Below are positions 41,505 through 63,829 of a DNA stretch of 64,000 nucleotides, one piece after another. The notes under the pieces are model-generated. The model was not told where the DNA came from. It ran no database searches and worked only from the letters and a program-made list of their open reading frames with translations. The DNA comes from Marsupella aquatica (taxonomy: Eukaryota > Plantae > Marchantiophyta): the NCBI GenBank assembly GCA_973895155.1, contig OZ316896.1, positions 19,146,754-19,210,753 of the forward strand. Direction: 5' to 3'. How positions within the stretch are numbered: position 1 is the stretch's first letter; the number at the start of each line of letters is the position of its first letter. A program made the translations under genes and the position numbers.

Positions 41505-41954
41505 ATGGTGAGGACCCGCAACGCTGAACATGTGCGACTTGCACGCAAGGCAGAGATGTTGCGCCTTGAGTATGTCAGACTTGGGATCCTTCCAGCCCAG
41601 TCTGCATGGTACTTTGAGTACCCTGTTGTTTCCAGGAACAACTATAGCCGGCCTCTACCTGCTTCAGTACCCTTCCCGACATCCTTGGTATTTGTGTCTC
41701 TTGTACATGACCCGCCACAAATTAGGTGCCAAGGGTGTGTACACAGTTGCCAATATGACTGTCCTGCCTGTAGGGCTTCTGGCCCAGAATTGGATGACCG
41801 TTCTCTTGGATGCCGATTTTTGCACAGAGCACAATGTATCATCTGGAACCACTCGCCATCCTGCAGTGTGCCTGGTGATGTCACTTGTCCTGCCCTCCCA
41901 GACCCCACCACCGGTGACTTTGGTGTCTACACATGTTTGGATCACATGCTCTAG
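41505..41954 (+). CDS. CACTA-borne 149-aa Cys/His-rich ORF, possible divergent PHD/RING-type zinc finger
   Basis: Intact ATG-to-stop ORF; ligand-like pattern CQGC..CPAC..CRFLHRAQC..YTCLDH; co-oriented with the transposase. Confidence 0.5.
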   Translation: MVRTRNAEHVRLARKAEMLRLEYVRLGILPAQSAWYFEYPVVSRNNYSRPLPASVPFPTSLVFVSLVHDPPQIRCQGCVHSCQYDCPACRASGPELDDRSLGCRFLHRAQCIIWNHSPSCSVPGDVTCPALPDPTTGDFGVYTCLDHML

Positions 41955-42569
41955 AGGACCACTTGTCACACCGCATGCACAGACCAGATACCATTGACCT
42001 ATAGCTTAACACTCTGACTTCAACACAGAGGATATTTACTTAAAATTTTGATGTATGAGCAATTTTGGGTCCAGGGTTTAGGGTCAACAGTACATAACTT
42101 ATATCCTATTATGCCTGCACTAAGCAAAATATCCTAATTTAAGAGGCTAGAAAACTCGCATAAAAGTCTCTATTGAAAGACTGCTTTCATGACTGCTTTA
42201 ACCTGGTGAACATTGCAACGTTGAATGAATTAATGGGCCATGTGATAATATGCAAAATGATTGATGCCTCACTTATTTGTCTCAGCCACTATCATAACCT
42301 ATTTAGGATGTATAAATTTCAACCCTTATGACACTGCTTCATACCAATCCTCTTTGAAGAATGCCTGTTTTACATGTGACGACTATTGTATGTGATTCAA
42401 ATGCATGAAATGTTGTTGCAGATCTCCTTTGGTGAATCATAGCCACAATTAAAATTGAGGTGTTGGTGGAGAAATTGTATTAGGGGATCAGTTTTGTGTG
42501 TGGGCTCAACATACCAAAAGTATGTGTGCTCTGCATCCTTGTGTGGCCATTCCAATTCATTGCAGTAGC

Positions 42570-42712
42570 AAATGCCTTTGTACCTTAAATGCTAAATATA
42601 TTTTACTTTCTGTGCAGTCTGCTAAATTGTAGAGTCTATCTAAATGCCTTTGTACCTTAAATGCTAAATATATATTACTTTCTATGCAGTCTGCTAAATT
42701 GTAGAGTCTATC
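42570..42712. repeat. Tandem duplication, 72-bp period x2, just upstream of the PHD ORF
   Basis: aaatgcctttgtaccttaaatgctaaatata..ttactttct.tgcagtctgctaaattgtagagtctatct starts at 42570 and at 42642. Confidence 0.92.
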
Positions 42713-42724
42713 TCATGCGCAGGC

Positions 42725-43405
42725 ATGGCACGGCCTAAAATTCAAGCCAAAAAGCGTGTGACAGAGGTGAGAAACACAGGTGTACTTGGGGCAGATGCTA
42801 CTAACTTCTCTGCAAGTCAGATTTTCCAGAAGGCAGCTCATTGTTGTGCCATTTGTGACGATGGTGGGGGCCTGGTCATTTGTGAGGGCCCTTGCATGAG
42901 GCATTTCCACCTCAACCCGGAGTCTGACCTTGCTGCAGAAAACAACTGTCCAGGGGTGGGCCTCCCGTCAACACACCAGGGAGACTGGATGTGCACTTAT
43001 TGTTTGGAGAAGCAGGCTAAGTGTGCACAGTGTGGGAAGTTGGGGTCCTATGAGGGCTCTGTTGATGCTGCAGCAAATGTTAGGAAATGTCCAGACCGTT
43101 TTTGTGTGAGATTTTTCTGTTTTGAGTGTTTGCCTGCTCATGCCACAGCTTGCCCACTTCATAGGTGCAAGGCATGTGGTGAGCATGATGATGACTACTG
43201 GACTGACATAGTCCACTGTGCTAGGTGTCCCACTATGTGGCACTATCATTGCCTAAAAGATCATCAAGCAGAGGGTTAGGCTTGTGACAGAGAAATCTAT
43301 GATCACTCTGCACATGGTGTTGATCGATGGATATTTTATTGTCATCGCCATGCCATTGATCCTACCTCGCGCACTCCTGTGAGAGATCACATATCTTGGC
43401 TGTGA
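42725..43405 (+). pseudogene. CACTA-borne stand-alone EDM2/NSD-type composite PHD-finger module (226 codons, one in-frame TAG at 43277-43279)
   Basis: CAICDDGGGLVICEGPCMRHFH..WMCTYC..KCAQCGKLGS..KCPDRFCVRFF..CPLHRCKAC..HCARCPTMWHYHCL; the frame continues past TAG to WIFYCHRHAIDPTSRTPVRDHISWL, resembling the EDM2 motif IYC..HEID....TPVRDH. Confidence 0.85.
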
Positions 43406-43997
43406 AGCTGAACATTGTACATGCACAGTGCACCTGATGTGGATGTACTATTTTTTGAGATTGCAGAGATTCCAATTTTGAAAAGGAGTTGGGTAGGCGA
43501 GTTTATATAGGCAGCACTTATCTTGTGCTCTGGCGTCAGTGGCTGGGTACATGCCTATACAAACTTATCCTTACAAGCCTTCTTGGAAGTATTTAGGCTG
43601 AGTGGTCATTTTCATAAACACTTTCATCACACTGCTAAATTAAAATAAGACTTCTAAGTTGTAAGCGTATAAATTATCAGGCATGCAATTAATCAAATTG
43701 CCCTATAAGTTTGTCATTGAATGTATCCTCCTTTACAACAAAATATGTATGTGCCATGACAAGTTGGTTGCACTTCATTTCACCACGGATATGGATTTTG
43801 TAGTATATATTCAAACAATGTCCTGCATCCGTGCAGGTGCCTAGTACGTATTGTTCACATATCCCTTGTACCTATCAAAATCGGACCTGAGCACCAGTGG
43901 GCCAGATCAACTCAAAAAGCAGGAATTTTGTTGTCCTTGTATTGTCAGGTGAACCCATTCTTCCAAAATTCACTGTCATCACGTAGGGTGTGTGTAC

Positions 43998-44870
43998 ATG
44001 GAGCCTGGTAAACGTAGAAAGTGTGACCACCCAGCAGTGTTTACAGGGGTCAGAGCGATTTTGGTCCATGGCCAGCATGGGTTGACCAAAGTGCATTGGC
44101 CAACTGTACAGAAACGATTCTCTGAGCTCCATGGCACTGTAGTTCAGGACATCACTCCAGAGACTACACATGTTGTTGCAGGGACATGGCTATCAGTGAT
44201 AAAGAAGTGGTCATGGTCCTACATGAATTCTGCAATTACTAAGCAAGGCCTAAAAGTAGTTGAGGCCTCTTGGATCACAGATTCCATAGCACATAAGATT
44301 GTACAGGATACTGAGCAATATGAGTTGTGGGAGGATGAAGAAGCTACTGCATCAGCTTGGGCTGAACAAGAAGTCTGGGAAGCAAAGGCACGGCTTGCTG
44401 ATCTCCAATATGGACCTGTACTCAACAAAGGACAGAGCTCTACAAGGCTGAAGAGTATGTTGGCTGAGGAGACGAAGCAACCAACCCCCATTCTGAAAGG
44501 GCTGAGCATGGTATTTGTGGAGGCGGGAATTGGAGAGGTTAAGTGCAAAGTGTACAAGTCCACAGTGCTTGACCTAGGTGGGACAGTGGAGGAGAATATA
44601 ACAGAGGACACCACTCATGTCATTACTAAGTCATATCCCAAAGCCTGCCGCAAGTTTGGGAAGGGAGACATTCGCTTTTATGTCATGTCCCATAATGTGT
44701 TTGTGGTTTCATATGCTTGGCTTGTGGAATCAGTAGCAGCTGGGAAGCGTCAAAACCCAATGGACTATGATCTTTTTGAGGCCTGGCCACGGAAGGGTCA
44801 GGATCCTTACAGAGAGGACTATGAGACAACAAGTGAGGAATGGGTCATTAGCGATTCTGAATCAGAGTGA
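43998..44870 (+). CDS. CACTA-borne tandem-BRCT domain protein (290 aa, intact, intronless)
   Basis: Two BRCT-pattern repeats: FTGVRAIL..HGTVVQDITPETTHVV..VVEASWITDSI..EQYEL and LKGLSMVFVEAGIG..LGGTVEENITEDTTHVI..VVSYAWLVESV..MDYDL; N-terminal basic PGKRRK (NLS-like). Confidence 0.85.
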   Translation: MEPGKRRKCDHPAVFTGVRAILVHGQHGLTKVHWPTVQKRFSELHGTVVQDITPETTHVVAGTWLSVIKKWSWSYMNSAITKQGLKVVEASWITDSIAHKIVQDTEQYELWEDEEATASAWAEQEVWEAKARLADLQYGPVLNKGQSSTRLKSMLAEETKQPTPILKGLSMVFVEAGIGEVKCKVYKSTVLDLGGTVEENITEDTTHVITKSYPKACRKFGKGDIRFYVMSHNVFVVSYAWLVESVAAGKRQNPMDYDLFEAWPRKGQDPYREDYETTSEEWVISDSESE

Positions 44871-45303
44871 GGAGTAGTAGCATCAGTTTGGACACAAGTT
44901 TTTTTGTATAATTCAGATCATTGAAATAAATGTGATCTTTGAACTAATGTACCTTGTTATGGTTGGTGGCAGTTGGGCTTATTTTACTGTTGGCGGATTG
45001 TTGTTTCCTGCTGCCTGGGGGTGTCACTGTAAACGTACATGCAGAGGCGGTACATTTGAGGACAGCGGAGGAGGTGGTGACACCCTCCAACATTTAGAAA
45101 TTTTGTGTCATTCACTTGACAATAGGTACACTACTTGCGAACCTGTTTTTTTCTTTTGGGGTGGTTTAGGGTTTGTGAGAATTTAGTACACGTTATGTTA
45201 ACTCTTTTGGCAGATACAGTCAGGGATATATGGAACACAAATACCACCATTAGGCATCCTTGTTCACTGCTGTCCATGACTGCAGAGCTCCCAGCCTGTT
45301 ACA

Positions 45304-48300
45304 ATGCACCCTGGTCACCACCCTCCCCAGACCCAGCCCAGGGCACAGGCACTGCCTTTGCATCATCCCACAAGGATATCACGCCATGATAATAAGCTTT
45401 GGCAGCGTGAAAGGTTACGAACCAGACTTTCAGGAGCCAGTAGGATGAGATGTCCTTGTGCAATCTGCCAAGGATCCCGTACCAAGGGTCTGAATGAGGT
45501 TTGGCGGCATATCGCGGTTCATGGAAGAGATCCACGACATCGAGTTTGGAATGATCCTGTAGAGGAAGATTCTTCCGACGAGGAGTGGAGGTTAGAATTT
45601 GATGCTGCCAATGCTGCAAGACGGGCAAGTGAGGTTCTGCCTGGTGCATTTGAAAATGTTGTAGCTGGTCTCTGTGGGTTGTCAGCTCTCCAACGGGATG
45701 GTGCTCAGGCAGCACCACGTGACGAAGGAATTCATGTGGAAGAGATGGTGAGAGACATCTTCCAAGACTTGGATGCATTTCATGATGGGCTGGACAATGA
45801 AGAGGATACGGCTGCAGATGCAAGTGTGCCCCCTGTCGAAGAGCCTCTTGATGAGTTTGAGATAGGGCAGGAAACCCCTGGGCATGATGGGATGTTTGGC
45901 TCTCCCCTGCAAATACAGGAAGGCAGGAAGTCTTTGTACCCCGGTAGCAAATGTTCTAAACTGGGATTTGTCATCATGTTCCTGAACATTTGCGGCAACC
46001 ACAATGTCCCCAACGTTTTGGTTTCTGAGTTGTTGGCATTCTTGCGAACAACTGTGCTACCAGATGGTAATATTTTGCCCAAGAACATGTACGAGGCAAA
46101 AAGATGCATATCTAATCTTGGATTGAACTATGATTCGATCCATGCCTGTCCTGATGGGCATGTTCTTTTCAGAAAGGAGTATAAAGAATCGTTGACATGC
46201 CCTAAGTGTGGGAAGCACAGGTATCGGAACTCAGGAAAGTCTATGGTTCCCGCCAAGGTACTTCGTCATTTTCCACTCATTCCCAGACTTCAGCGGATGT
46301 TCAGAAGCCGTGCCATCTCGGAGATGATGACTTGGGCAACTGACAAGAAAAGTGATGATGGGCTACAACGACATGCTGCAGATTCAAGGCAATGGAAACT
46401 CATAGATGAGATGTATCCCGAATTTGCTGCTGAGCCGAGGAATGTCAGGCTTGGGCTGTCATTGGATGGGGTAAACCCATTTGGAGACAAGAACAACAAA
46501 TTTTCATGCTGGCCTGTAACTATTTTGAATTATAACCTTCCTCCTTGGATGACTACAAAGCGATTTTTTGTTCTGATGGTCCTACTGATACCAGGGCCAG
46601 ACAGTGCTGTATCTGCCAACATAGATGTGTTTCTGGCTCCCCTAGTGGAGGAATTGAGAAAGCTTTGGGAGGAAGGAGTTCTCACATATGATGTCCTACA
46701 GAGGCTTGGGAGGTTAAACCCATTCATCCTTAGAGCCATTGTCATTCTGACTATAGCTGACTACCCAGCCCATGGGATGATATCAGGCCAAACAACAAAA
46801 GGATATTGTGCTTGTACTATCTGTGGGCGCAATGTCACCAGTGAGTACTCCAGAGCCCTGCAAAAAGTGATATACATGGGCCATCGTCGTTTTCTGAAGG
46901 CAGATCACCCTTACAGAGAAAGACAGGCACTGATTGCACACTTTGGCAATGAGATTGAGCAACGTGGACCCCCGGCACGAGTGACCAAAGAGGAGATCAG
47001 GCAGTGGGGAGCACTGAGGGATGACTATATCAAACGAGGGGGCAGGGAAGATGGAGTGAGTGATCCAATAAAGCGATATGGTGTAAAAAGACTGAGCATA
47101 TTGGACTTGGAGCTCAAGTACTGGAGGGTAAGCCTCTTGGAGTTGATGCTAATTGGGATACATGTTTTGGTTCAGAGCATGTGCATTCATTTCGAAGAGA
47201 GAGACTAAACTTGAGGCATTTCCTGACGCTTTTGCATTGCAACGATGCAGGAGTTTGAGCCAAGCAAACATAACATTGATGTTATGCACATTGAAAAGAA
47301 TATTTGTGAGAGTCTACTCAGATTCTTGTGTGGAGAGAAAGACACTGGTTCAGTGAGATTGGATCTTGAACAGAGGGGAATGAAACCCCATCTTTGGTTG
47401 AGGCCACATGCCCACAGAGCTGATGTGCTCTTGAAGTACCAAGTGCCCTATGTTCTGACAGACACAGAGTGGGAACTATTTGTGTAGAGGTTGAGTTCTT
47501 TGAAGGTTCCTTCAAACTATGGCAGTGCTTTCAAGAAGCATATCATGACTAGAAAGCTTGGTAGTATGAAAAGCCATGACTACCATATGTTGATGCAACA
47601 GGTGTTGCCTTTATGCCTGAGGGGCCTGTTGCAGAAGCCTGTTCGTACTGTGATCATGCGACTCAGTGATGTGTTTCGTCGTATTTGTGTGAAGGTTTGG
47701 GATGAAACACACTTCCCACAACTGACAGAAGATGTCGCTCAGGTGCTGTGTGACCTGGAGATTTATTTTCCTCCCGCATTTTTTGATGTCATGACCCACC
47801 TACTTGTCCATGTTGTGGAAGAGCTACACCAATTTGGGCCTGTGAGTGCTCGTTGGTTGTACCCTTTGGAACGGTACATGAAGCTACTCAAAGGTCACGT
47901 GAGAACATATTACAAACCTGAAGCAAGCATGGCTAAAGGTTACATCAAGGATGAGACTCTGGGATTTCTGACCGAATACATAGCACAATATGAGCATGTG
48001 AAGACCAGGGTGTGGAATTCTGATGAGGAGGAAGGGGTGGTAGGTGAAGTACTGGAAGGGGCTGCAACCACAAAGAACCTGACCATATCTATGAGAGACT
48101 TGGCACATGACTTTGTATTGCACAACACTGTGGTGATGGAACCCTGGATACAGTGAGTGCATACATGTGCTATAATCCAGTTCATGAGCTTAAATATTGT
48201 GTTCGTGTGGTTTTCTCCTTCAGCCTGTTCATGTTTACCCAAGCTAATGCTGTGTGGTTGTTCGTTCAGGGAGTATGAGTCATTGAAGGCGGCCCATCCC

Positions 48301-49035
48301 ACTGCAGGAACAACTTTTCCAGGTTTCATGGAGTGGATCAGAGTGGCAATTAGAGAGCATCACGAGACCCACCCAGACATGGATGCAGATGTTTACCTAC
48401 TGTCTAATGCCCCTAGCCTGAAAGTGAAGACTTACAAACGGATGAGAGCATATGGGAATCACTTCCGAGTGAAGGATGGTGACAGTGCCTACAGGGTGAC
48501 GAATGATTGCGGGCTCATCACTGTATTTGAGCAACAGAGCCACAATCACGACAGGGCCTGGATGGAGATGGGATATGTGGGAGAATTAGTTGACATATGG
48601 GCTCTGGACTATGGGGCGGTGTCTAGTCCTGTGATTCTTATGAAAGGTTCATGGGTGCGGCAGGATTGGCTTGGTAACAGGGCTACCATGAAGAGAGACA
48701 ACGACGGTTTCTTGCTGGCCAATTTCAGAGGGAAATTGCCCGAATGGTCTGAGCCATTTGTGTTTCCTAGTCAGGTGGAGCAAGCTTTCTTCCTGGATGT
48801 GGAAGACTCCCCAGGTTGGCGTGTAGTGTGTCATAAACAGGCCAGGCAACGCCGGATGGAAGGATCAAACCTTGAGTTTCATTTACACTCTCATAGTGCC
48901 TTTGATCGTCGGCGTTCAGACCAAGTGCCTGTAGTTCATGATAGCGGGGACTTCATTCCTGTGACAAGGGTAGATGCATTTGCTGAAGGAGGCGAATTCA
49001 GAGATGTAGATGCCAACAGTGTGCCTGTGCCATGA
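45304..49035 (+). pseudogene. CACTA TnpD-like transposase (transposase-associated, Transposase_21, DUF4218 and DUF4216-type regions), 3 exons, one in-frame stop
   Basis: RCPCAIC; IHACPDGHVLFR..CPKCG..KVLRHFPLIPRLQRMF; RNVRLGLSLDGVNPF; NYNLPPW; IDVMHIEKN; MKSHDYH; FPPAFFDVMTHL; RWLYPLER; EPFVFPSQVEQAFF. Exons 45304-47127, 47251-48152, 48270-49035; TAG at 47485-47487. Confidence 0.93.
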
Positions 49036-49191
49036 GTAATGTGAATTGTTTGCATAGACATTAGTGAGGGGAAGGATGTGTAATAAAGTAATTCTGAAGC
49101 AACACAGATGTATGGATGGATGCCTGGTGATTGTGGTTGCATTGTGTTATACGGGGTGACCATAGATGACATGTTTTTGTGGTCCAGTAGG

Positions 49192-52100
49192 ATGGAACAG
49201 AGTGACACAGAGATGTGTGAGTATGAAAGGAAAGCTATGGAACAACGAGCATACGTGAAAGCCAAAATCGCAGAACTGGATCTGGAAAAGGATGTGGCTG
49301 AATTGTAAGGGAACGATTCTCAACTACACCCCTCCGCTGAGTTTGTGTGACATGAATAGTTCAATGTGGCACTGAAATTGTGACTGTATTCTCATATTGG
49401 AATGTCGCAGAGCCACAGCATTTTCAAAGAAACAAAAGGAGTACGCAAGAAGGGTGACCAGCACTATCTCTGGGCCTGTGCGTCGGAGTGACAGGTTGAG
49501 CAAGAAGGTCGTACCTACAATGGCAGAATGTGGAGATGACATTGATGCTGCACAGGTGGGTGCAGACACTAGACAAGAAGATGCAGATGATGAGTATTTT
49601 CCAAAGGAAATGGATGAGGATGGGGGTTATGAAGATGAATACATTGCAGAGCAGCCCCAAAAGAAACATGTAAGTAGTTTTCCCAACAAGGTTTTGAGTT
49701 AAAAACTCTTGTTTAGAGGTTTCATATGTTCAGTACTACACATATGTACCTTGCTTAGTTCCTGACATTGTAGTTGGTGATGTGATGCAGCGTCCTGCCA
49801 GTTCTGTTTTGCCTTCGAAGCCTGTGCATGCACCATACCAGCAGGGGGGGCTGACCTCTGATCAAGGTTGGCGAGGTGGTAGTAGTGGTAGATCCCAGGC
49901 TGGTGCCCAATACTATGGCAGGGGGCAAGCTCTAGGTTATGCCCGTGGTAGAGGCAGAGCAGGTCCAAACCCACAATCTCGTGGGTATGGACGTCCACCT
50001 CAACCATGGGGATGTGAGTATATATCTATATGCCAGTTCTTTGTGAAGGCATGGCACTCCTGAATTTCAGACTGCATATCAATTTTTGACATTGTTTGGG
50101 ATGTATTGGATTCAGACAACATGAAATTCTGTCCACCTGCCATTGCATGCAGATTCTGCCCAACCTGATTGGGCAAATGCTAGTAATGATCAGTTCCAAT
50201 GTCCACAAGGACAGACATGGGTTGAACCAGGTTGGGAGGATGGTGGTGGGTCGTGGAATGAACAAGGTTGGGAAGGTGGTGAAGGTAATTGGCAGGGATA
50301 TCAAAATTCAGTACCTACAAACGCTGGAAGAGGAGCAGGTAATGTCTGATCTTGTCAGCAATGGAAGAACTCATTATATGTGGAGTCCATTCACGTGGGG
50401 GGGACTCTGCACATGTATAATGATAGAAAATGTATGTGTGCAGGTTGGACAGTCGAACCATCGACTCAAGTATTCACTAATGCCCCTATGCAGATGCAGC
50501 ACGGAAGGGGGACAGGTATATCGGTGAATGTTCAGTTGTTTTCCTACAGTTTGTACTTAGTTTTCAGTACATATGTTTGCACACACATACCTAGAAAGTG
50601 ACATCATCCGGCCCCTGTACTAGGCTGGACAGGTGGTCCAGGGTCGCAACAATTTCAGAGTGCAGTCCCTGCACAGGCATCTACAGGCAGAGCTACAGGT
50701 ATGTATGTTTGAAGAATTTTTCTTGAAGTGAAGCATTGAATGTTGCCGTCATCCATTCTGCTATATGTAGTTCTCAAGCATGAATGGCATTGTATTTTCC
50801 CAGGTGGCTTCAGAACCCCAGGTAGGGTGAATGAAGGGGTGGCCAATACAACGCCCAGTACTACCGAGAGCAGTGCACGAGGGGAGGTGACAAAGAAAGG
50901 GAACGTAAAGTTGAATGAGAGACAATGGGTGGATGCTGAGTGTCCTCGCAAGAACCGATGGCATGCTGATTTGAAAGCTGAAGTATTGCGTTGGTTAGAT
51001 GTGAGTGTTATTAATTTTAAAAAACAGCATCCAAAAGATTGGAAGACTGTATGTGAAAATGTTGCTGCCAAATGGAATTATGTGGGCAGTGATGATGGCG
51101 TGGACATAGGTTGCCTAGAGAGTACAGCAGGTAAAATTATCAAGCAAGAGAGGTGGAGAATGCATAAGGCTTGGAAGGAAGGTGGGGAGAAGCCAGATAT
51201 GCCTCCACCAGCCAGTTGTGATGATAAAGTGTGGGCAAGGTTAGTAGCTTATTTTGTAACAGATGCTTCAAAAAAGAAGAGTTCACAGATGACCGAGGCC
51301 AGGTTGAGTGTTCAGAACCCTAATCTGACAGGAAGGACCGGCATTGCACCGACAGCTAAACGTTTGGTAAGAATGAATGGCCTAGCTATGTAATTTATGC
51401 TACACTATGTACTATTTTTTAGTGTAAACCCATACATGTAAACTTTGTTTTTTAGTGTACGTTCCCTGAATATTGATCGATAACTTGTGTTTGCCATGCA
51501 TGTGCAGAAAGCCCAATTGGGGCAAAGCCCTTCAAAAGAAGAGTTGAGGGCTGAAATTGTGAACACCCGGGCTCAAGAGGGTGCATCTGAATCCTCCAAG
51601 CATGTAAGTTATATGAGTTCTGATTGGTAATTGAATGACCTGCGTTGAATTTCAGGTGTACACTGTATATAACATTGATTGTGCATATATTGCCCAACAT
51701 TTCATATGGAGTGATTGAACCTATACCCCTGTGTCATGTAGGGAGGTGGATCTTCACTTACAGAGATAAGTGGTCGTTTGAAGGCTGTCGAAACATGTCT
51801 TCCAGAGATCAATGAACGTTTGAATTCATTGACTGACTTGTTCCATGTGAACTTCAAGACATTAATGGAAGCTGTTGTGTCGGTGAGAGATAAAATTGAT
51901 TCCAATTCTGCAGGAGTTCCACCATCACCACTTGAGGTGGCAAAGTCGATGCACTCTTCTGGCATGCCAACGACATGTAGGCTTGAAGGTAAGGCCTTTA
52001 CAACTGTGTGGGATATGATTATTAAATGTATAGTTTGAATTGACATTGTTTGTTGAATGTGTTATTTTCAGTAACATATATTGTGGTTGTTGTGTCCATA

Positions 52101-52898
52101 GAGAATAAGACAGGTGCTACAGAGAAGAAGTATGAGAACCTGGCAAATACTCGCTGTAATTTAGAGGCAACAAAGTTGCAGTCTGTACAAGCAACTTGTT
52201 TGACAGAGGGCAGTCAACCATGTTTGGATGAGGATGACATTGGCAAGGGAGTGGATGATATCAATGTTGGGGCAAATGAGGATATCAGCAAGCATGACAA
52301 TGATACCATTGAGCCAGATTCATGCTATGTAGATCTTGACTCCATTGCAGAGATAAATGATTTGCAGAATGTATCATTCTCAATGACAGGTGTGCCTCTT
52401 GTTGAGATAAATCCAACCAAAGAGTTAGTTGGTATGACACTCCCAGGTGATGAACCTGCTACTGTGACAGTCCTAACAGAGGAACCTACTGAGCCTAGCT
52501 TCACTATTGTGAAGAGAGGAAGCATGCGCACACGAAGCAAGTCTGCTGGTGGGAGCAGAGCCACGTCAAAGGTTTCATACAAACCTCCAAGAACAGTGCT
52601 GGCAGAAAGATCTAAGGTGGAAGTGGGGAAAGCACCTAATGCTGAGGGACAAAGTGGCTTGTTAGCTGTTGATGAGAGTGGAACACGAGTAGGATTTGCC
52701 AGAGTGCAGGTTGGTTCCACAACGTTCCATGGCAAGAGGATTCCCCCAGGTTATTCAGTAGTGTTAGTCACATTACTAGTGAAACCTAAAGCTGTCCTTC
52801 CCATTCCAAACACAAATGATGATCCTCCTCAAAAGACACTTGGAGATGCTGCAGGTTCTTTGGTATTATGGCCAAGCAAGTTCATAGAGGATCCATAA
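49192..52898 (+). CDS. CACTA TnpA-like (ORF2) multi-exon gene; exon structure only partly resolved
   Basis: N-terminal CEYERKAMEQRAYVKAKIAELDL; Ptta/En/Spm-like WARLVAYFVTDASKKKS..ARLSVQNPNLTGRTG; C-terminal FHGKRIPPGYSVVLV..LPIP..TLGDAAGSLVLWP typical of plant CACTA ORF2; several GT-AG flanked segments. Confidence 0.75.
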
Positions 52899-53394
52899 CA
52901 ATGTCATGCCATTATTTGTTTGTAGTGTGAGTCATGTTATGTAGATTTTAGATGTCAAGAAGCAGTACAAGAATCATGTCCTCTTGGAGATTCATAGTAT
53001 CATGCATGTGCTTTCAGTTATCTCATCCTACAGTCATCAATTATGAGTTCCTGTTTTGTCTAAATTACATTGATCACATTGTAAACTATTCCATTGGAAT
53101 TCAAATGATCTTCATTTTTTAGCAAGATTGTGATTGTGTTTAATTCTTATGAATGTTTTATGTAGGATTTGCTTATATGATGTTTTGTTTCATGTGGATG
53201 TCATTCATGCTATGTTCATTTCTTGTATTCAATGTGTTATATTTCTAAAGTTAGAACATCAGGTTTCTATGTATTGTAATGTCGAGTGCTCTCTCTTCTT
53301 ATGAACTGTCCCTCTGTGTTCATTAGTCATGGTTATAACTTGCATGTGAACCTTATTAGTTATAAACATGAGTATATAGAGTCCCAAATGGTTC

Positions 53395-53753
53395 TGTTGT
53401 GTGACGCGGGCCAGGGTCTCCATTGGTCTCTCCTGTGACACTAAATAGTCACACGCTAGTCGTTGTTGAATGCGGGTAAGTCATGTATGTGACTTACGAT
53501 GTGACTCGCTGAAGTCATATTGCAGTCACGTCGAAACAAGGCTAGACTCCACAATAAAGTCACAGATCAGTCACAAATGGGTATCAAGCAAGTTGCAAAG
53601 CCCAGTATCAATAGTGACTTCCATTTTTTGGTCTCAACTTTTGCAACTCCAAGGGTCACAGCGTGGGTCAAGTCACGTTGAGTCACAATGAAGTCACATG
53701 AGCCAAAATGAGTCATATATTGCGGTCTCAGTTCACCTCGGATTCTTCTAGTG
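53395..53753. repeat. CACTA right subterminal repeat array (core AGTCAC/GTGACT, both orientations) and right TIR
   Basis: More than 10 copies, e.g. tagtcacac, aagtcatg, tgtgactta, cagtcacg, aagtcacag, gagtcacaa, aagtcacat. Confidence 0.85.
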
Positions 53754-53756
53754 AAG

Positions 53757-54650
53757 GCAGCCCTCTCTGATATGATAGTAGACTGGTCAGGTTTCCGTTG
53801 AGTCCAAGTCCACCACCTGAAGCATTTGAGAAGCAATAGAAGATGGAGGAACTGGATGCCGACCAAAAAGTAGAAAATAAGGAGAGAAGTTGGACAAGGA
53901 GGCATGGTTGGACATGCGGTACCCCATGGCAATGTAAGGCAGTGCCAAGTCCCAATCTTTCTTGTTCTTGGTGAGGCATATTTTCCGCAATCCTTGTTTG
54001 CAGGTCTGTACCATCCGCTCAACTAGACCATCCGCTTGAGGATGATCCCTTGAAGTTCTACGATGATCAATGAGTGCATGGTCAAGTAGGTCCTGAAATT
54101 CTCCTCTGAATTTAGAGCCCTGGTCAGTGAGGCACTCTGCACAAGCCCCAAACCTGCTAAGCACTTGCTGGAGAAAAGCTTGGCTAGTGCTATGTGAACT
54201 CTTATCAGGCAAGGCAACCAATTCAATCCACTTAGAAAAGTGCTCAATCATGATCATTATATAGAGGTTACCCCTGGATGTCAAAGGTAATTCTCCAGCA
54301 AAATCACAAGATCAGCGGTAAAACAATCCCTGAATAGGGAGTGGATGAAGTATAGGCTGTCGAGAGGAGAATGAGGTTCTTACTCTGTCACACTGTTCAC
54401 ACCTAGCTATGATATCCCGAATCTGAGCATGCATCCCCTTCCAATGGTAGTGAGGAGCCATCAAACTATAAGTACGCTTGATTCCAAAATGCCCAAGTTC
54501 AGAATGTACTTTTCTGACCAAGTCAGCCCTATCAGCAATTGGTGGAACCACTCTCTCCCCTTGTGGAAAACAGCAGACTAGGTGATCTCCCTTCCACATG
54601 TAACGCTTAGACCATTGTTGTATCTGATCCCTTTGAGTAGTGGTCATGCT
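53757..54650 (-). pseudogene. Gypsy integrase, HHCC zinc finger and DDE core (disrupted)
   Basis: VHSELGHFGIKRTY..HYHWKGM..ARCEQC; SCDFAGELPLTSRGNLYIMIMIEHFSKW; CLTDQGSKF; HPQADGLVERMVQ; FSPYFLLFGRHP. Confidence 0.93.
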
Positions 54651-54668
54651 TGGTGGGTACTGCTTGTG

Positions 54669-56044
54669 CTACAAGAAATTCAGAGTGTCCAAATCCTCCC
54701 AGATGTCCACAATTGGTTGGCCAACAACGCTGCAACAAAGCAAGGCAAGATAGGCAGAGGCCCCAAGTGTAGAGCTAGGACTAGCATGATCAAAATCTTG
54801 CCGTGCATCTGAAAAATCTGTTGAAGTGATCAAAGGACTGCGAGACATGGTGTCAGCATTCTGGTGAGTAATTCCAGGTCTATGAATAACTGCAAACTCA
54901 TATTCTTGCAAAATGAGGACGAGCTAGCTTGCCGGTAAGCTTATCATTGGTCATCAACCACTTCAGTGGCTGGTGATCGGTAAAGAGCATGAACTTAGTG
55001 CCATACAGGTAGGGTCTGAAATGTATGACAACCCACACAACAGCCAAGCATTCGCCTTCATAAGAGGAGTAGTACGTTGCTCTCAGCCTTGTTATTGCTC
55101 CTAGACGCATAAGCAATGACATACTCCCGCTCGTCCCCATCAGATTGACCCAAAATGGCACCAATACCTAGAGCACTCCAATCTGTATGCAAAATGAATG
55201 TTTTGCTGAAATCAGGCCTTCTGAGAACAGGGTAACTTGATAACTTTCCCTTCAAAGTTTCAAATGCCACCTGAGTGTCTTCAGTCCATTTCCAGGTAAC
55301 ATCCTTCTTAAGTAACATGTACAATGGGTGAGCAATGATGCTAAAGTCCTGGATGTAAATTCTGTAGTAATTACATAGACCAATGAAGCTTTGCAAAGTG
55401 TGAGTATCAGTAGGCTTGGGCATCTCAAGAATAGAGACCACTTTAGCCCAATGAGCCATAGTGCCATTTGGAATGATTTGATGCCCAAGGTAAACCACTG
55501 AGGTAACAACAAACTCACACTTCTTGGGATGGATCTTCATATTAACATTTCTCAGCCTCCTCAACAACTCTTCAAGATCTAATAAGTGTTGCTCAAAACC
55601 CTTGCTATGAACTAACACATCATCAATATGAAATCAGCACCTTCTAGTACTTGATCCATCACCCGTTGAAAGAAGACTGGTGCATTCTTCAGTCCAAATG
55701 GCATCACCAACCATTCCCACAATTGATTGCTCCCATGAAAAGTTGTCTTCTTACGGTCCTCAGCCCGAATAAATAGGTCTCTCATCGGTCAGCTCAATGG
55801 AGAATTGCATCACCTTGCACTTGCCCAAGTCTCTCATTGAGAAAGCAAACACATCTTCATAGCTCAATAGCAAATTCAGTACCTGATCCCGTTGCTTCTT
55901 ACTCAACTGATTACCCATCACAAACTGGAAATTTGCAACGCATGGTGTAGAGCTAGTGGGTGTACTACAAGAACCTGATGTGCTTTCCTCTTTGCCTGGT
56001 GTGATCTGGTCCATGCCATGTTCTGATTTTGAAATTTTAGTCAC
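54669..56044 (-). pseudogene. Gypsy reverse transcriptase and RNase H (frameshifts, internal deletion of the RT N-terminal part)
   Basis: [31 protein letters not shown]; (Y)IDDVLVHS; KKCEF..YLGH; FILHTDWSALGIGAIL; YEGECLAVVW; FTDHQPL; HQNADTMSR; PIY is joined directly to IRAEDRKK near 55765. Confidence 0.93.
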
Positions 56045-56189
56045 ATTACAGAGTACCTCTCCCCCCCAACACTAGGAGTGAAATGTAGAGTGGAGAGGAT
56101 GGGTAAATGTACTTCATTAGGGTGCCAGGTAAGAACTTCATTAAGGCGAGAGGCTGGGTCACCCATAGTAGGAACAGTATGCATCTGGA

Positions 56190-56790
56190 AAAGAATACAA
56201 GTAACCAAAAGCCATGTTAAAGCATTAAGATCCATGACTCTGCCAAGAAGAGAATTCTGCTCTAGCCTAGTCACTTTAACATGACCAGTAGTGCCAGTTT
56301 GGAAACCCATAGCTCGCTCTCGCTCCTCCGGGCTTGGCTCATCCCATATATGTATCCAAAGCGTGACGATAGACCAGCCCTGGTCCATCCCCTTGGAAGG
56401 CATGGGCGCCAGGAAACGAAACAAAGGTAGGCCAAGCACCTCTGGGCTCCCCAATGGTGTTAGCAGGGTACCAAGGTGCTCTCTCTTGCCGAGTGACGGG
56501 CTGACAAGAGCTATTAGCATCCAAAATCTGGTGCACCTATAATGTAGGGTCTCTGACTGTATGTTTTAGAGCCAATTGTAGTAAGCAAACCCGGGAGCGA
56601 ACCGATGCAATATTGGTCCAAAAATTACGCAAACGATGCGCATAAGACCGACATTGGGCTGCATCAATTAAGAACGGTGGACCAAGATAGTGTTGGACTA
56701 GAAGAAAATCCTCTTGGATGTTCTTCCGCTGGTCAAATTGAGAGGGTGTGTTCTCAATGACATAACCAACAACAGGGTAAAGAGCCTGGG
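56190..56790 (-). pseudogene. C5 cytosine DNA methyltransferase domain, C-terminal half (motifs VI, VIII, IX, X), DNMT3/DRM-like, within Gypsy pol
   Basis: Manual translation: GYVIENTP (VI); PFLIDAAQCRSYAHRLRNFWTNI (VIII); EPSPEERERAMGFQTGTT (IX); TRLEQNSLLGRVMDLNALTWLL (X). Confidence 0.88.
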
Positions 56791-57894
56791 TGTCACCTAC
56801 TTATCAAACGATTTACACGACAAATACGTATTTACTCCTACTAAAATCATTTGTTATCGTATGACGAGAACATGGAGGGACGCTATTAGGATTCTATTGC
56901 ATGTAGGATGAGTATGTTTATTTTCGCTCTCAGAAATGTAATTTTTGATCAAGTCTACCAACTAGCCGCTCTGCTTTTGATCAAGTCCCATGGACTATGC
57001 CATACACACACTCCTACTGGTCGTCGGTGGAGTGTTGTCACCACCCTTCCCTACTCACATGGTTGACCAAACCGTGCAAGGATTCCTTAGACGTTTCTTG
57101 GGGAAAGAATACAATCGTGAACCAGAAAAGGTAACACCGCACCAAAACTTGAGGAATCAAACCAAATCCATATCTTTTGGCAAAACGTTGTAACACATTG
57201 CAAGGACAACCCGGCCTCCTGCCGTCTGTCCAACTACTGCCTCACTGGGGCAAGTGCTACACCTCTACCTCACTACTCTGGCTTGATTCCCTCTTCTGGC
57301 TATGAGCTAACTTCCCTAAGCAAACACTAAAGTGAGTCCCCCCCTCACTACTACGGGGCTCTCCCCCTAAATACCAAAAAACATACAAAAGCACCCCTCA
57401 CGAGGCCACAACGATGGCGGCTTACCCTAGCGGCGCCACTAAACCCTTCACTAAGAAACCCCTAAACTAAAAGCATGCAGCACACACATGCTTCTAAAAC
57501 CCTAAACCCTAAACTAACAATGGGGCCGATGGTGCCTTCGACGACGCCCCAACATTACTCCGTGAACCGTGAAATTGCAAGGAACCCCACAATGGCCGAA
57601 ACTAGGTGCTCTTCCACTTGCACTTCTGAGTTCACCCCTGGATAGACCTTCTCCTCCTGATCATGAATCACTCAACCGCTCTTGAAACGGACATCGGACG
57701 ACCAAGTTATGGTCGTTTCAGTATCCCGTAAACCCAACTTCGTCGGGCCCTAACTTGCTCATCCTGGCTCCGTTTGAGGAGCGCTGCCTCTTGTTGGAAT
57801 CAGCTCCGTGAGCTCTTTCCAACAAGCCCGTGAGTGACCCCTCACAAAAAGTTGGAAAGTCAAGGGGCCGTACAACCACGTCCGTACGACCACT

Positions 57895-59778
57895 CTAATC
57901 CTCCTCCTCTTCACTCACTGTGCCTTGGCTTGAGCCCCGTGAGTGGGCCTCCTCATCACTCTCCACTGGAGTGAGTGCCACCTCACTCCTCTTCTTCTTT
58001 ACCGGGGTACTCCTTGTGCTAGTGCTCCCCTGCTTCCTCAAATTGGCCAAGGCCTGCCACGCCTTAATGTACCCCTCACCAATGGTGTCCTTCCATAAGG
58101 CTGTCTCTTCATCGGACCGCAACTCCAACGGTAAAACCTGCCCGGTGGCCATGGGAGTCCCAGGGGTGACAGATCGGGGTGGCATCCCCGTGTTGACCTG
58201 AGCCTCTCGTAACGATTTACGTACCTCCCTGAGCTTCTTCTCTAAGCTCTTGCTTTTCTCTTGACTCTTCTTGGCTGTATCCAATAGGGGTCCATACTTC
58301 CCACTGACTTCCTTCACCACCATCTCAATGGCTATGAAGATCAAATCCGGGGAAAGTGTGGAGCTAGGTGTGTAGGGGCTCTTCCGTTTCCCGAGATTCA
58401 AGGCCTCACTCCTCTTAGCCCTTGTCTCAAAGATCACCATTTGACTCCGTAGAGCTCCTACCTGGGCTCTTAACTCCACCACTTCTCCAGAATTCTGCTT
58501 CTCTTTGGCCAATGCCTGTTTCAATACTCCAACCTCTTCCGCTTCCTTGGCCTTGGTGGACAAGGCTCCCTTCAAGTTGGAGATCTCTACGTGAGCTGCT
58601 TGGAGAGGTTTATCCTTCTCATGAATGGCCTCCTCATTGGCCTTGATCACCTCCTTCATAGACAGGGCACTCTGCTCCAAATTCTCTACTCTGGCGGTGG
58701 CCTGCTTGAGAGAATCTCTCAATGCGTGGACTAGCTTGAGTCCCTCATGGACTCCCTCCCGGAATTCCCGTAACTTTGCCAAGTAGACATCAGGAATGTC
58801 ATAGACCAGGGGCTCCTCCGGATTTCCCACAAGTGATTCAAGCCACTCCAATGTGGAGTTCTCATCCTGGTTTTCTTCCTCTCTATTATCATCCCCAACC
58901 GCCGAGGATGATCCCTCCGTTAGTTTTCCCAAGATGGTAGTGGCAATACTCCTGATTTTCGTGGTAAAGGATGATCCAGAGTCTTCCTGTCCCGGGGAAA
59001 CAATCCACCCTTCTGCTCTGGCCAGAAAAAATGACCCCATCAAATGTACAGCCCCACCTGGTTTCACACTCTCAAAATCGGCGTCCAATAGCTTCTTCAA
59101 CCCGTAGTACCACCATCCGTACACATGGGCTGGATAGTTCTTGATGTCCATAGCTACCACGAAATGTTCTCCATTCACCACCCCGGATTGCATGTTACCA
59201 AGGACCCATTGATGAACCTTGGCCAGAAATCCCTTGTGCTCAGCGTTCTTGACGGCGGAAAGAGGAATGAAAGTAGTGGAGGTGGGATTAATCACCCAAC
59301 CGGCCACCATTGTGAACGTGAGCTCTCCCCTTATGTTCCGCGGTGTGAATGAGAATTGTTGGTTCTCCAGAAACAGAAGCTTAGCTAACTGAACATGGGG
59401 CACTACCCGTTGGAGACATTCAAAGTAGATTCCTTCGGTACGTAACTCCATCCCGGCCTCAATGTTCCAATTCTTCCCCGAAGGGATTGTAAACTCCACC
59501 TTCATGAACTCTGTGAGCCCGGTGACTTGAAAAATATTCCTACGATCCTCCATCACCTTGGCGGAGGTCTTGGGATAAATTCGATGGAAAACCTTCCTAC
59601 TCACCGGTGTGGAACTTGCCGCCAGCCCAGTACTCATCATAGCTTTTCTCTCTTCTCTCTCTCTTGCAATCAATGTCTCAACGTAGTCACGGTAAGCAAC
59701 CTTGTATCTCCAAACGCGTGCCGCACTAAACTCTGGTTGATCCAGCATCCATCCAGAAATCAAATCCTCAATCACCAA
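57895..59778 (-). CDS. 627-codon ORF of unknown function inside the 4.3-kb insert; C-terminal coiled-coil and acidic/basic tail
   Basis: Long uninterrupted ORF; E/K/A/L heptad-rich region (LRDSLKQATARVENLEQS..VVELRAQVGALRSQ); TATAAG and a CT-rich leader upstream on the minus strand (~60023); first ATG near 59748. Confidence 0.65.
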   Translation of the reverse strand: MVIEDLISGWMLDQPEFSAARVWRYKVAYRDYVETLIAREREERKAMMSTGLAASSTPVSRKVFHRIYPKTSAKVMEDRRNIFQVTGLTEFMKVEFTIPSGKNWNIEAGMELRTEGIYFECLQRVVPHVQLAKLLFLENQQFSFTPRNIRGELTFTMVAGWVINPTSTTFIPLSAVKNAEHKGFLAKVHQWVLGNMQSGVVNGEHFVVAMDIKNYPAHVYGWWYYGLKKLLDADFESVKPGGAVHLMGSFFLARAEGWIVSPGQEDSGSSFTTKIRSIATTILGKLTEGSSSAVGDDNREEENQDENSTLEWLESLVGNPEEPLVYDIPDVYLAKLREFREGVHEGLKLVHALRDSLKQATARVENLEQSALSMKEVIKANEEAIHEKDKPLQAAHVEISNLKGALSTKAKEAEEVGVLKQALAKEKQNSGEVVELRAQVGALRSQMVIFETRAKRSEALNLGKRKSPYTPSSTLSPDLIFIAIEMVVKEVSGKYGPLLDTAKKSQEKSKSLEKKLREVRKSLREAQVNTGMPPRSVTPGTPMATGQVLPLELRSDEETALWKDTIGEGYIKAWQALANLRKQGSTSTRSTPVKKKRSEVALTPVESDEEAHSRGSSQGTVSEEEED

Positions 59779-60511
59779 ATCCCGTCACCCGTAGCGATGT
59801 CAATACCCTGGCCTGAAATGGTCCCCGTATCCCGATCAATCAATGACCCTCAATTCCCTGAGAAGCCACTCAACGCCGCCGCCAATGCCCGACAAGAAAT
59901 GAGCCACCAATCACCAATAATCCACCATGAGAGAGCTTCAAAAATAATTGCAAGAGCTGGAGAGAGCTTTCGGCAATGAGGGAAATTGCGCAAAGAGAAG
60001 GGGGTGAGAAAAATGACTTATACACGGTAAGCTTTCCCTGTTTTTCTTTTCCTCACGACTGCACTTCTCGCCATGCGCCCCGGCCCGCAGCCCTATGCAG
60101 TGCCATGCATGTCCCGCTCACGGGGGCTTAATTGCCCCCCTTTTCCACATGATCGCTTCCTCTGTGCCGACTGCGGCCCGGCTGCGCCTCGGCTCACCTC
60201 GGCTCTTGCAGCGCAATGCCCTCCCGTAGCACCCCCCTTTGGGGAATTAAAAAAAACCCCCGCACACCGGGCTCCTCCCGGCTTGCTGCTTACTCGCGCC
60301 GACTCACGGCGCCCTCCCTGACTCACACAACATGCCTCCCTATGCAAGGGGCTGGGTCTCCCGGGTGCCACCTGGTCACTCACGGAACGCGCTCGGCTTG
60401 CCCCATGCCAGGCCACTTTAAGGGGCATTTAACCCCCCTCCGCGACCTTCCTGATCCCCGGCCTCCCGTAGCGCTCCGCTACCCCGGCCTCCTTACTTAG
60501 TACTCGCGGTG

Positions 60512-60755
60512 CCCCTTAATGGGGAATTTTAATTTCCCCCCCCACACCTTGGCGCCTCGCGGCTGCTGCCGCGCCTCGCTTCCTTCATCTCGCAGGGGCT
60601 CCTTAATCGGGAATTTTTAACTTCCCCCCCACACCTCGGCGCCTTGCGGCTGCTGCCGCGCCTCGCTTCCTTCATCTCGCGGGGGCTCCTTAATGGGGAA
60701 TTTTTAACCCCCCCTAAATCCCCGAGCGCACCTCGGCTGCACCGCGCCTCGCTAT
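60512..60755. repeat. GC-rich ~88-bp tandem repeat (2 full copies plus a partial one) inside the 4.3-kb insert
   Basis: ccttaat(g/c)gggaattt..aa..ccccc..cacacct.ggcgcct.gcggctgctgccgcgcctcgcttccttcatctcgc.ggggct repeated. Confidence 0.85.
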
Positions 60756-61137
60756 GGCAGCTCCTTTGGGGGGGTTTACCTTCCCCCTTCAGCCTTACCT
60801 TAACGCTCCCCCCGGTGTCGCCTCGCTTTTCCCATATTCAGTAAAGGTTAGCACTCCTCCTAAACCTTATTGGGGTCTCAACAAAAGAAAGAGGAAATCA
60901 GGACCTAAGGGAAACAGGGTGTCTACTTAGACCGACCCTAGTTTCAAGGTCCCAACATCCTGGTTTGCTGGGGAGCCTTAGGCCTCCAAAGAATGTAGAG
61001 ACCTCCAGGGCATAGCAACCGATAATGACGGACGTAACTAAAAAAACAAAAAATAGGCTTATTTACAATGGTTATTTTACATGGCACAACCCAATAACCA
61101 ATTATTGAGGATTTTATGTGACGGGGACCCCGTCACA

Positions 61138-61530
61138 CTGGGCCCAATTGAGTATTTGTACCAGGTCCATGACGAGTGCTGACCGGGGATCACTCAAACC
61201 AGCTCCAGAACCTGCAACAGAAAACCTTGGCATTCCCAGCCAGCAATGATGAGGTCCAAGGAACCAAGTAGCTCAATGTGTTTCTGTTGTAGCAACTAAA
61301 CATCAGGAGGAAAGAGAGTGAAGCTTGCCTTCCATGCACTAGGTGGAAATTGTTGTGGGAACCTAGCTGAAAATTCCAGCATCCGTGATTGAGCCACCTT
61401 CCTTGCATATGGGTCAGTGAGTGTCCACATAGATGTACCTCTTCACCATCATGCCAGATTGCAAGACCCCCTCTAGGCCTGTAGAAATGCCACCAAAAAG
61501 CTCCAGCAAGGTAACGCCATCTTGAGGAGT
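61138..61530 (-). pseudogene. C5 cytosine DNA methyltransferase domain, N-terminal half (motifs I, II, IV, V), within Gypsy pol
   Basis: Manual translation across frameshifts: DGVTLLELFGGISTGLEGVLQSG (I), RYIYVDT/DPYARKV (II), LDLIIAGWECQGF/SVAG (IV), GLSDPRSALVMDLVQILNWAQ (V). Confidence 0.88.
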
Positions 61531-61539
61531 TGTCCAAGT

Positions 61540-62480
61540 GAATTAGTGTGCTCAAGACTGGGAAGATGGGTTGGCCATGGCTTTGTAGGCCCTCACATTG
61601 CTGTAGAGCAATAGTCAATGGTCCATGGGCAGCTCTTAGCCGTTGGACCACCTCAGGTTGAGGGGCTAACACAATAGGTGCAGCCAGTAAGCTCTCATTG
61701 GCTTGTGTGGTAGCCAACTCCTCTTCATCTTCTTCAATCCAATCATGCAATGAATGGTTGACATAGGAAACTGTATGCACCTCTTGCAACACACAGTAGT
61801 GAGCACTAGGGGTATGCTCCCCATGTAAATCCAATGGAATGTAGCCCAAGCACATTCCATCAGTTTGCCAATCAACACGATAGTATGCATGCTCAAACCA
61901 ATTATCAATGGTAAATCCTGGCGGGAATAAAGCCTCTTGGCCAATCAGCACATCATAGCTTGTGGCATTGGTGACCAGACATCTGACCTTGAATTGGAGT
62001 TCCTGATATGTACCTTCATTGAAAGAGAGAGTGAGCAATTGAACACTCTCACCTAGTACCTCCTCCACGGTGCCACTTGTTGTCTGGATGTACCATGCTG
62101 ATTTTTGCAATTTGGAGTCAACTAGCCCCAACTGTTTGGCAAATTGAATTCCAAGTATGACAGGCTGAGCTCCAGTATCTAGCATAACCACCTTAGGAAT
62201 GTGACCTTCCACCTGTACCACTGCAGCCCTATTATCAACAATGGCAACACTAGTGGAGACTGAAGTCTTGTCACTAGGAACAATCTTGGGCACATTGTGA
62301 GACATTTTGTGCAGGACATTAGTATCCACAACCTTGTCACTGATGAGCACGTTCAAGAGGGACTGAGAATTCCCTGAACACTTAGATATAGGCCTAGCCA
62401 TGGAATCAATACTCATCGTAGCACTAGAACTAGAACTAGAACTAGAACTAGGAAGTGACAAATGCATACTATATTCAGCA
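61540..62480 (-). pseudogene. Gypsy retropepsin-like aspartic protease and linker
   Basis: VMLDTGAQPVIL catalytic motif (DTG ~62171-62179); YDVLIGQEAL C-terminal motif; one extra base near 61540 separates it from the methyltransferase frame. Confidence 0.88.
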
Positions 62481-63829
62481 TGTGACAAAGGGGACGGTGT
62501 CGTGATAATTCAATTATTCATGATGAAATCATTACCACTAAGTATATTAGTAAGTATATATAACTTAGATTTATATTTTGTTACGGGGTAACTAAATAAT
62601 TTGACTATTATGTATGTGCATGCAAGGTAAGCAACTATGCAAACCACAAGATGCATGTACAAATTGTTTGGATGCATGTGCAAATTGTTTTATTTGCATT
62701 CAATAGTCATTTTATGTGCATGCAAGGTGAGCAAATGTGCAAGTCACAAGGTGCATGCACAAATTGTTTTAGATGCATGCAAATTGTTTTAGATGCATGC
62801 AAATTGTTTTATTTGCATGCATTAGTTATTTTATGCGCATGCAAGGTGAGCAAATGTGCAAGCCACAAGGTGCATGCATGCACAAATTATTTTAGGTGCA
62901 TGCATTAGTTGTTTTACTTGCATGCATTATTTATTTTGATTACAATAGTACTAGCACACATTCCTACGTTGGATGTGTGTCACTTGGCTTTCATCCAAAC
63001 GGTTGGGCGTAATTTATGCCCTCTTGGATTCAATTTAAATAAAGTGGTGAGACGCACTCTCTCCTCATTCCCATATTTTGATCATTTCCGCGTTGAAGCG
63101 ATCTTCTTTTCTTCTCTCATCTTTCTCTTCTATTCTTTGCTTTATGTACATAGTAGTTGGGCATCCTTTGGCCCGGATAGCAAAGAAATGAGTGGTAGAC
63201 TTATAGATGGGACCTTAGGAAACAAGATCTCTTTGGGAACTTAGGGGTGGGGCATCCTTTGGCCCGGATAGCAAAGGAACAAGAGAGTCATTATGAATCC
63301 AGGAGGGAGATATATCCCTAATCTTCCCCTTCGTAACCCATTTTTGGTTAGAGTCCATCTTTAAGACAAGCCATCCATGAGGTAGTATTTAACTCATCAC
63401 TTTGGAGCTCAATTTACAACTGCTGTTATGAGTTCTAATGAGCCAATAGTATACCCAATAGTGTCTTATCGAGAAGAGTGGGAGTGCATTATCTTTGTCC
63501 TTTATTGAAGTCATGGATCTAAATAGGAGTCCAGATGACATTCCTATTTCATTTTCTCCTGGAGATATTATGATTGTATGTCGTAGAAAAATTAGTTTCC
63601 GAGATGTGTTGATCTGCAAGTATGATGAAGTAGGATTTAATAGTATATTAATTTTACCTGAACCTTTCTTAATACCCATCGCCCTTCTTACAAGAGTTAT
63701 CATTTTGGTTTTAGTGTAAAACTTATGGGCATGTAAGGTTAACTTCATAAGAGCCAACATGCTTTTACCAGAAAACACGGTCACCCGGACAACGGTCCAA
63801 TCAAAACCTAATGTTGGACCTTCATAACA
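62481..63829. mobile_element. Probable solo LTR (~1.35 kb) inserted upstream of the protease
   Basis: Starts TGTGACA and ends CATAACA; AT-rich non-coding block between two coding-like minus-strand segments; flanks AGCA/GGCA form only an imperfect TSD. Confidence 0.5.
62612..62935. repeat. ~100-120-bp tandem repeat x3, rich in CATGCA/TGCATG
   Basis: tg(t/c)gcatgcaaggt(a/g)agcaa..tgcaa..cacaag.tgcatg..caaattgttt three times. Confidence 0.85.

Follow-up and report, generated by a model that had tools for sequence, protein, structure and literature searches.

The 64,000-nucleotide stretch of Marsupella aquatica DNA analyzed here (contig OZ316896.1, positions 19,146,754 to 19,210,753; hereafter the window) carries on its minus strand the remains of a Gypsy retrotransposon. 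As put forward in a preliminary description of the sequence, an unpermuted DNMT3-like cytosine methyltransferase domain was found within its pol, between the protease (PR) and the reverse transcriptase (RT), with RNase H (RH) and integrase (IN) further downstream. The frame holding the protease matched protein P0004 at 63% and the Calypogeia protein P0016 at 74%. The tail of the integrase and a PHD finger are located 18 kb off, across a CACTA transposon, and the gag of the element lies beyond the window. The coordinates of all features are given in Table 1.

The methyltransferase is divided by an insert of 4,347 bp, and the flanking CTGGG duplication described earlier was recovered at +56786 and +61138. 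Position 56785 was joined directly to 61138 in contigs from two of four public sequencing runs (X2 and X3). The insert is therefore secondary, and there are other copies without the interruption. All cytosine-C5 methyltransferase motifs listed previously were located in canonical order on the minus strand: LLELFGGISTG, YVD, DLIIAGWECQG/FSVAG and DPRSAL in the N half, followed by VIEN, IDAAQCRSYAHRLRNFWTN, EERERAMGF and RLEQNSLLGRVM in the C half. The domain contains two in-frame TAG stops (61298-61296 and 56539-56537) and four frame changes (near 61541, 61418, 61226, and 56345). The element is a dead copy, carrying stops, frame changes, a loss within RT and nested insertions; the preliminary description was right on this and on the several frameshifts, but had counted a single stop. 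The expected match to the profile PF00145 failed for the window, where one of five pieces matched below the cut-off (E 0.028), and held for the homologs, 12 of the 15 scanned being above it. Read with X at each break, the window domain scored 344 bits against a profile of distant relatives (111 proteins, all of the type B layout defined below), while the best of 200 shuffles scored 1.1 bits.

Table 1. Features of the DNMT3-carrying Gypsy element and of the insertions within it (window coordinates; TSD, target-site duplication).
Feature	Position	Strand	Evidence and remarks
DNMT3-like domain, N half (motifs I, II, IV with GWECQG, V)	61138..61542	-	3 frame changes and 1 TAG
DNMT3-like domain, C half (motifs VI, VIII, IX, X)	56200..56785	-	1 TAG and 1 frame change; 59-78% to 20 homologs
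End of gag-PR linker, aspartic protease (DTGA), PR-DNMT spacer; open frame	61541..62500	-	PF13975, E 3e-7
DNMT-RT spacer and RT	55480..56199	-	Frame changes; about 100 codons deleted near 55772
RT connection and RNase H	54916..55479	-	PF17919, E 2e-21; PF17917, E 3e-15
Zinc-binding and core domains of integrase, interrupted by stops	53754..54905	-	PF17921, PF00665
Integrase C-terminal part and PHD finger	35230..35747	-	58% to Sphagnum P0018
G-run polypurine tract, then single B repeat ending in CACGACA (3' end of element)	35044..35203	-	Related loci share the tract and the terminal motif
Nested 4,347-bp high-copy insert, one 629-codon frame	56791..61137	-	TG...CA ends, 5-bp TSD
Nested 18-kb CACTA (En/Spm) transposon inside the integrase gene	35748..53753	+	CACTAGAAG termini, 3-bp TSD; PF02992, E 2e-70

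The fold was modeled on an intact homolog, L019, and not on the broken window copy. Compared with PDB sequences, the open domain of L019 matched DNMT3A first (E 5e-9), followed by DNMT3C/B, DRM (3e-4), and HhaI (7e-3), with the catalytic Cys, the EN and the RxR residues aligned. Its structure model (pLDDT 93.9) had DNMT3B and DNMT3A as top Foldseek matches (TM 0.71, E 1e-19). Judged by ranked sequence and predicted-structure similarity the domain is DNMT3-like. An assignment to plant DRM was rejected, since the motif order I-X is not circularly permuted and the DRM matches were weaker (E 3e-4 or worse). The catalytic Cys and the motif VI Glu were each present in 182 of 183 aligned domains, the two Arg residues of motif VIII in 178 and 175, and the S-adenosylmethionine (SAM)-binding motifs were kept. 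The residue preceding the catalytic Cys in motif IV is Glu in 105 of the 183 domains, including that of the window, and Pro in 66. The window thus deviates from the Pro-Cys of the DNMT3 family, and Glu-Cys and Pro-Cys are scattered over the DNMT tree.

A search with the C half of the domain gave 20 proteins with 59-78% identity among 81 candidates, the named ones being from Calypogeia fissa and Sphagnum magellanicum; the closest named protein to the window DNMT is from a liverwort (73%). Four further Sphagnum species were added by a later search, mostly through the protease part. Among homologs in a single frame, one reads gag-PR-DNMT and another DNMT-RT-RH. A metagenome scan yielded at least 600 stretches, at least 517 of them confirmed, and the best 80 were analyzed as related loci. 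In these, PR was found upstream on the same strand in 73 and RT downstream in 72, together with RH (58), gag (51), IN (47), and PHD (39); missing neighbors mostly reflect contig ends, as judged by eye. Where this could be measured (69 loci), DNMT and RT shared a frame in 65, which gives no support to a programmed frameshift at the G-run after DNMT.

Between the window and these loci the median nonsynonymous divergence (pN) of DNMT was 0.19 at a synonymous divergence (pS) of 0.75, a level at which synonymous sites are saturated. The corresponding pN/pS values were 0.16/0.77 for RT, 0.18/0.76 for PR, and 0.30/0.66 for the spacer (columns with at least 35% local identity only, which retained 324 of 325 DNMT codons). 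DNMT is under purifying selection, constrained like RT and PR and unlike the spacer. We further compared DNMT and RT-RH trees built from the window and from 79 proteins in which DNMT, RT, and RH are complete (8 of type A and 71 of type B, near-duplicates included). Among DNMT-tree splits with support of at least 0.95, 23 of 26 recurred in the RT-RH tree and none conflicted; at 0.9, 29 of 39 recurred and four conflicted. The same place in related loci, an RT-like constraint and a tree that tracks that of RT make the DNMT a heritable family domain of pol, as had been proposed. That the window copy merely captured a fragment of a host DNMT3 once is next to impossible, since the domain is intronless, occupies one position in dozens of loci as well as in Closterium and Klebsormidium, and has diverged together with RT under purifying selection. 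Two points weigh on the other side. Sister elements lacking DNMT could not appear because the loci were picked by DNMT, and a deletion form without DNMT and parts of its neighbors was present in three of the four runs.

Beyond the close relatives, 253 clusters were found with E <1e-30. Of 299 proteins examined, 53 had the order PR-DNMT-RT (type A, as in the window), 129 the order RH-DNMT-IN (type B, the commoner layout of the clade), one was mixed by deletion and 116 were untypable. Named relatives of the window domain come from Calypogeia, Sphagnum, Closterium, Klebsormidium nitens, and Cymbomonas. Type A includes Closterium and the K. nitens protein GAQ93235.1, while of the type B proteins looked up a single one was named, from the chlorophyte Cymbomonas. 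The split between the types had a support of 1.0 in the RT tree and 0.89 in the DNMT tree, both without outgroup; deep nodes of the DNMT tree were weakly supported. The sequences fit one acquisition of DNMT and one move within pol, in either direction.

Relatives outside eukaryotes were searched for with one motif pattern. In IMG/VR all matches were C5 methylases that were partial and distant (best E 5e-11), and a viral origin was rejected for want of a close viral relative. The prokaryote scan gave 13 matches, and the three at full length were 9-13 kb contigs of metagenome-assembled genomes (L157, L158, and L159). These are whole DNMT3-Gypsy retroelements, in all likelihood mis-binned eukaryotic DNA, and a prokaryotic origin was rejected as well. 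The type B element L158 has an additional frame of 713 codons (10033-12171) between PHD and the polypurine tract, with no Pfam match.

The ends of the elements are unusual. Complete related loci have two repeats, A and B, in the layout A-coding-B-A-B. Among 35 loci with a 3' B, 20 ended in B-A-B (two with a shortened last B) and 15 in a single B, some loci being the same insertion in different samples. The window copy belongs to the latter form, with a G-run before its B and CACGACA at 35044; its 5' end lies beyond the window. The G-run, a polypurine tract, precedes B in related loci also. A 4-bp duplication of the target site (TSD) was examined in 17 loci with both ends, of both forms, and was exact in 10, had one mismatch in four and failed in three. 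The internal B/A junction consists of CA, two purine-pyrimidine bases and TG (17 of 20 by script, the other three by eye). The junction CGACA-GC-TGTC is identical in L157 and the type B L158, and L159 ends in it at the contig end; the palindrome is thus conserved from the bryophyte loci to elements with 35-45% protein identity. The A2/B2 join varies, and L004, L043, and L044 have deletions there. Among 35 decayed loci, 12 (control maximum 9) had in the A repeat a stretch of 13-15 nt, about 32 nt behind a TATA box, complementary to the end of A. L157 has a comparable 13-nt pair with different letters, and no 11-nt match was found in the type B elements L158 and L159. RNA folds, the starts of which were chosen by hand, agreed with the self-priming pair.

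With a predicted self-priming site after A, a polypurine tract before B, a palindromic junction and a 4-bp TSD, the ends look like permuted long terminal repeats (LTRs). We infer that B+A forms the actual LTR, with priming like that of Tf1, and that integrase cleaves within it once the cDNA ends have been joined or as they are joined. Against this stands the absence of an upstream B from all 35 left ends (32 with ample flank); a symmetric circle model predicts some such ends, and the end model leaves this unexplained. The order PR-RT-RH-IN, TG...CA ends and a TSD of 4-6 bp are those of a canonical LTR Gypsy element, whereas two full LTRs at the ends were not found. DIRS/PAT elements were rejected, since they have a tyrosine recombinase and no TSD where the elements here have an rve integrase and TSDs. 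Troyka elements, described with CG...CG ends, a 3-bp TSD and animal hosts only (PMC12440569), were rejected by that description, as the related loci have 4-bp TSDs. Self-priming, predicted here, replaces the tRNA primer also in the Tf1/Sushi and Tcn1 chromoviruses, which differ in having a chromodomain, ordinary paired LTRs and no DNMT (PMC6317226). Foamy-virus integrase likewise cuts a palindromic junction internally on 2-LTR circles; that junction is formed by the two cDNA ends, while here it is apparently a fixed site inside the repeat (PMC1180852).

The conserved CG and CAG/CTG within CGACA-GC-TGTC could also mean that the enzyme regulates its own attachment site, methylation deciding which of the two junctions integrase cuts. 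The conservation of the junction up to L157, L158, and L159 and the one-sided use of the two junctions are in line with this. However, the motif may be conserved for integrase binding alone, and timing or repair could give the asymmetry, so that we find this explanation highly improbable.

The window element has its closest described counterpart in KnitGypsy-Dnmt3 of the alga K. nitens, an intronless, unpermuted Dnmt3 in a Gypsy pol under purifying selection, with DIRS-like repeats and Gypsy domains (PMC5890265). Its repeat layout, A-coding-B-A-B (legend of Fig. 4 in PMC5890265), is that of the relatives here. The K. nitens protein GAQ93235.1 (P0272), a partial record without RT, has zf-CCHC, PR, and DNMT colinear with P0004. 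DNMT identity is 32% (E 1e-43), and motif IV differs (GFPCQ in K. nitens, GWECQ here). Because the gag-PR-DNMT order and the split repeats are the same, the link to Klebsormidium drawn in the preliminary description is borne out, and the window copy is almost certainly a member of the KnitGypsy-Dnmt3 lineage, with the polyprotein gag-PR-DNMT3-RT-RH-IN-PHD, and no separate land-plant invention. PMC5890265 treats the domain as acquired within the lineage of K. nitens, whereas the present clade takes in Sphagnum and Calypogeia as well as Closterium and the chlorophyte Cymbomonas, and a second layout occurs in it. SymbioDIRS-Dnmt3 elements share the Dnmt3 in pol and the split direct repeats, but have a tyrosine recombinase instead of a DDE integrase and are considered an independent acquisition (PMC5890265). 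EpiLTRs and DAM-LTRs are also Gypsy-like elements with methyltransferases; their DNMT is sister to DNMT4 and is accompanied by DAM and a chromodomain, while the domain here is DNMT3-like and accompanied by PHD (bioRxiv 10.64898/2026.05.21.726589). In its available part that preprint cites only "streptophytes (Gypsy-DNMT3)" as prior art.

On balance we favor an active enzyme that would act on the element's own cDNA, in the particle or just after it. The polyprotein would be packaged and cut by PR, with the DNMT packaged along with RT as a part of pol. The element RNA would prime itself as in Tf1, and reverse transcription would yield B-A/internal/B-A. Cleavage by integrase at the palindromic B/A junction within the repeat would then leave A-internal-B or A-internal-B-A-B. 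The PHD finger would steer insertion to chromatin unmethylated at H3K4, and the DNMT would deliver a pre-methylated copy that matches the silent chromatin of the target. The frames of L157 and of five related proteins close directly behind DNMT, so that in these the enzyme is produced along with Gag. The L157 stop, between DNMT and RT (3489-3497), is an in-frame TAG followed by CAATCA, and the five proteins end at the same place; this fits the leaky-stop signal UAG-CAR-YYA.

The PHD finger resembles those of KMT2D, KDM5 (PHD1), ATXR5, BAZ2, DPF, and UHRF1. Many such fingers are readers of unmethylated H3K4, the role held by ADD in animal DNMT3. Together, PHD and DNMT suggest that pre-methylated copies may be aimed at silent chromatin. 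The resemblance to the KDM5-PHD1, ATXR5, BAZ2, DPF, and UHRF1 fingers would also suit an active enzyme that comes in with an integrase-PHD complex and methylates the chromatin of the host, around or at the place of insertion or in trans, and in the commoner layout the DNMT does adjoin integrase. Yet the window layout puts it far from IN, the L157-type DNMT is in the Gag frame, and the K. nitens methylome is ordinary and plant-like (PMC5890265), which leaves host chromatin an unlikely target.

New cDNA would be the substrate nearest to a packaged DNMT and was proposed as such by de Mendoza et al. for SymbioDIRS, the related DNMT domains of which methylate CG de novo in yeast (PMC5890265). Several points weigh against self-methylation of cDNA. 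The KnitGypsy domain was inactive in yeast, a result that its authors call inconclusive (PMC5890265). Glu stands in place of Pro before the catalytic Cys, and no PR cleavage site was identified in the polyprotein. On the supporting side, CpG was depleted in three intact elements, all with DNMT (0.53-0.78 vs 0.95-1.23 for GpC), although host methylation explains this equally well. The yeast result and the Glu-Cys of motif IV would also be explained if the domain were a module that binds DNA or RNA, with little or no catalysis, and has a structural role in the particle. This is at least as unlikely as a host-chromatin target, given the near-invariant Cys, EN, and R-x-R residues and the SAM-binding motifs.

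Other insertions were observed in and around the element. The 4,347-bp insert had no terminal repeat pair and no Pfam match above the cut-off. Its read depth was far above that of the DNMT element, and its 629-codon frame is a coiled-coil, with streptophyte hypothetical proteins as look-alikes (Atlas), one cluster of which had a weak PF04195 signal (11%). It may be a non-autonomous element or a solo LTR of very large size. Another insertion of 1.3 kb, AT-rich and of high depth, lies in the gag-PR linker (62495-63795) and is skipped by contigs of two of the four runs. Apart from a transposase, the CACTA element encodes NSD-type PHD fingers (42698-43276) and twin BRCT domains (43953-44867) in further frames, which may be modules captured from a host. 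Elsewhere in the window two minus-strand frames are built of tandem repeats of 30 nt (12666-13865) and 21 nt (17016-17855, proline-rich), with no Pfam match.

No paper on a land-plant Gypsy-DNMT3 element or on the end mechanism was found in the literature searched, the coverage of which excluded most subscription journals and Repbase; nor are LTR elements of land plants known from that literature to encode any DNA methyltransferase. The KnitGypsy-Dnmt3 design is already described in one alga; mosses and liverworts are newly shown carriers within a large green-plant lineage. More speculatively, and as a possibility we hold doubtful, this may be an ancient Gypsy superlineage across Viridiplantae, with an active DNMT3 that tolerates Glu-Cys, a PHD reader, an enzyme packaged with Gag, self-methylated cDNA and integration through cleavage at a palindromic attachment (att) site within the LTR instead of at the ends of the cDNA, a site that methylation might select. 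It would be a DDE retroelement that integrates like an IS3 circle and is still abundant in moss and liverwort genomes.

Since mosses and liverworts carry the Klebsormidium design too, and its relatives number in the hundreds, it has been kept for a very long time. It is also a caution that fragments of transposons are counted among the annotated DNMT3 genes of bryophytes. The permuted ends suggest a route of integration unexplained for DDE retroelements, and many natural enzymes are now to hand for the question left from 2018, namely whether the Gypsy DNMT3 is active, and on what.

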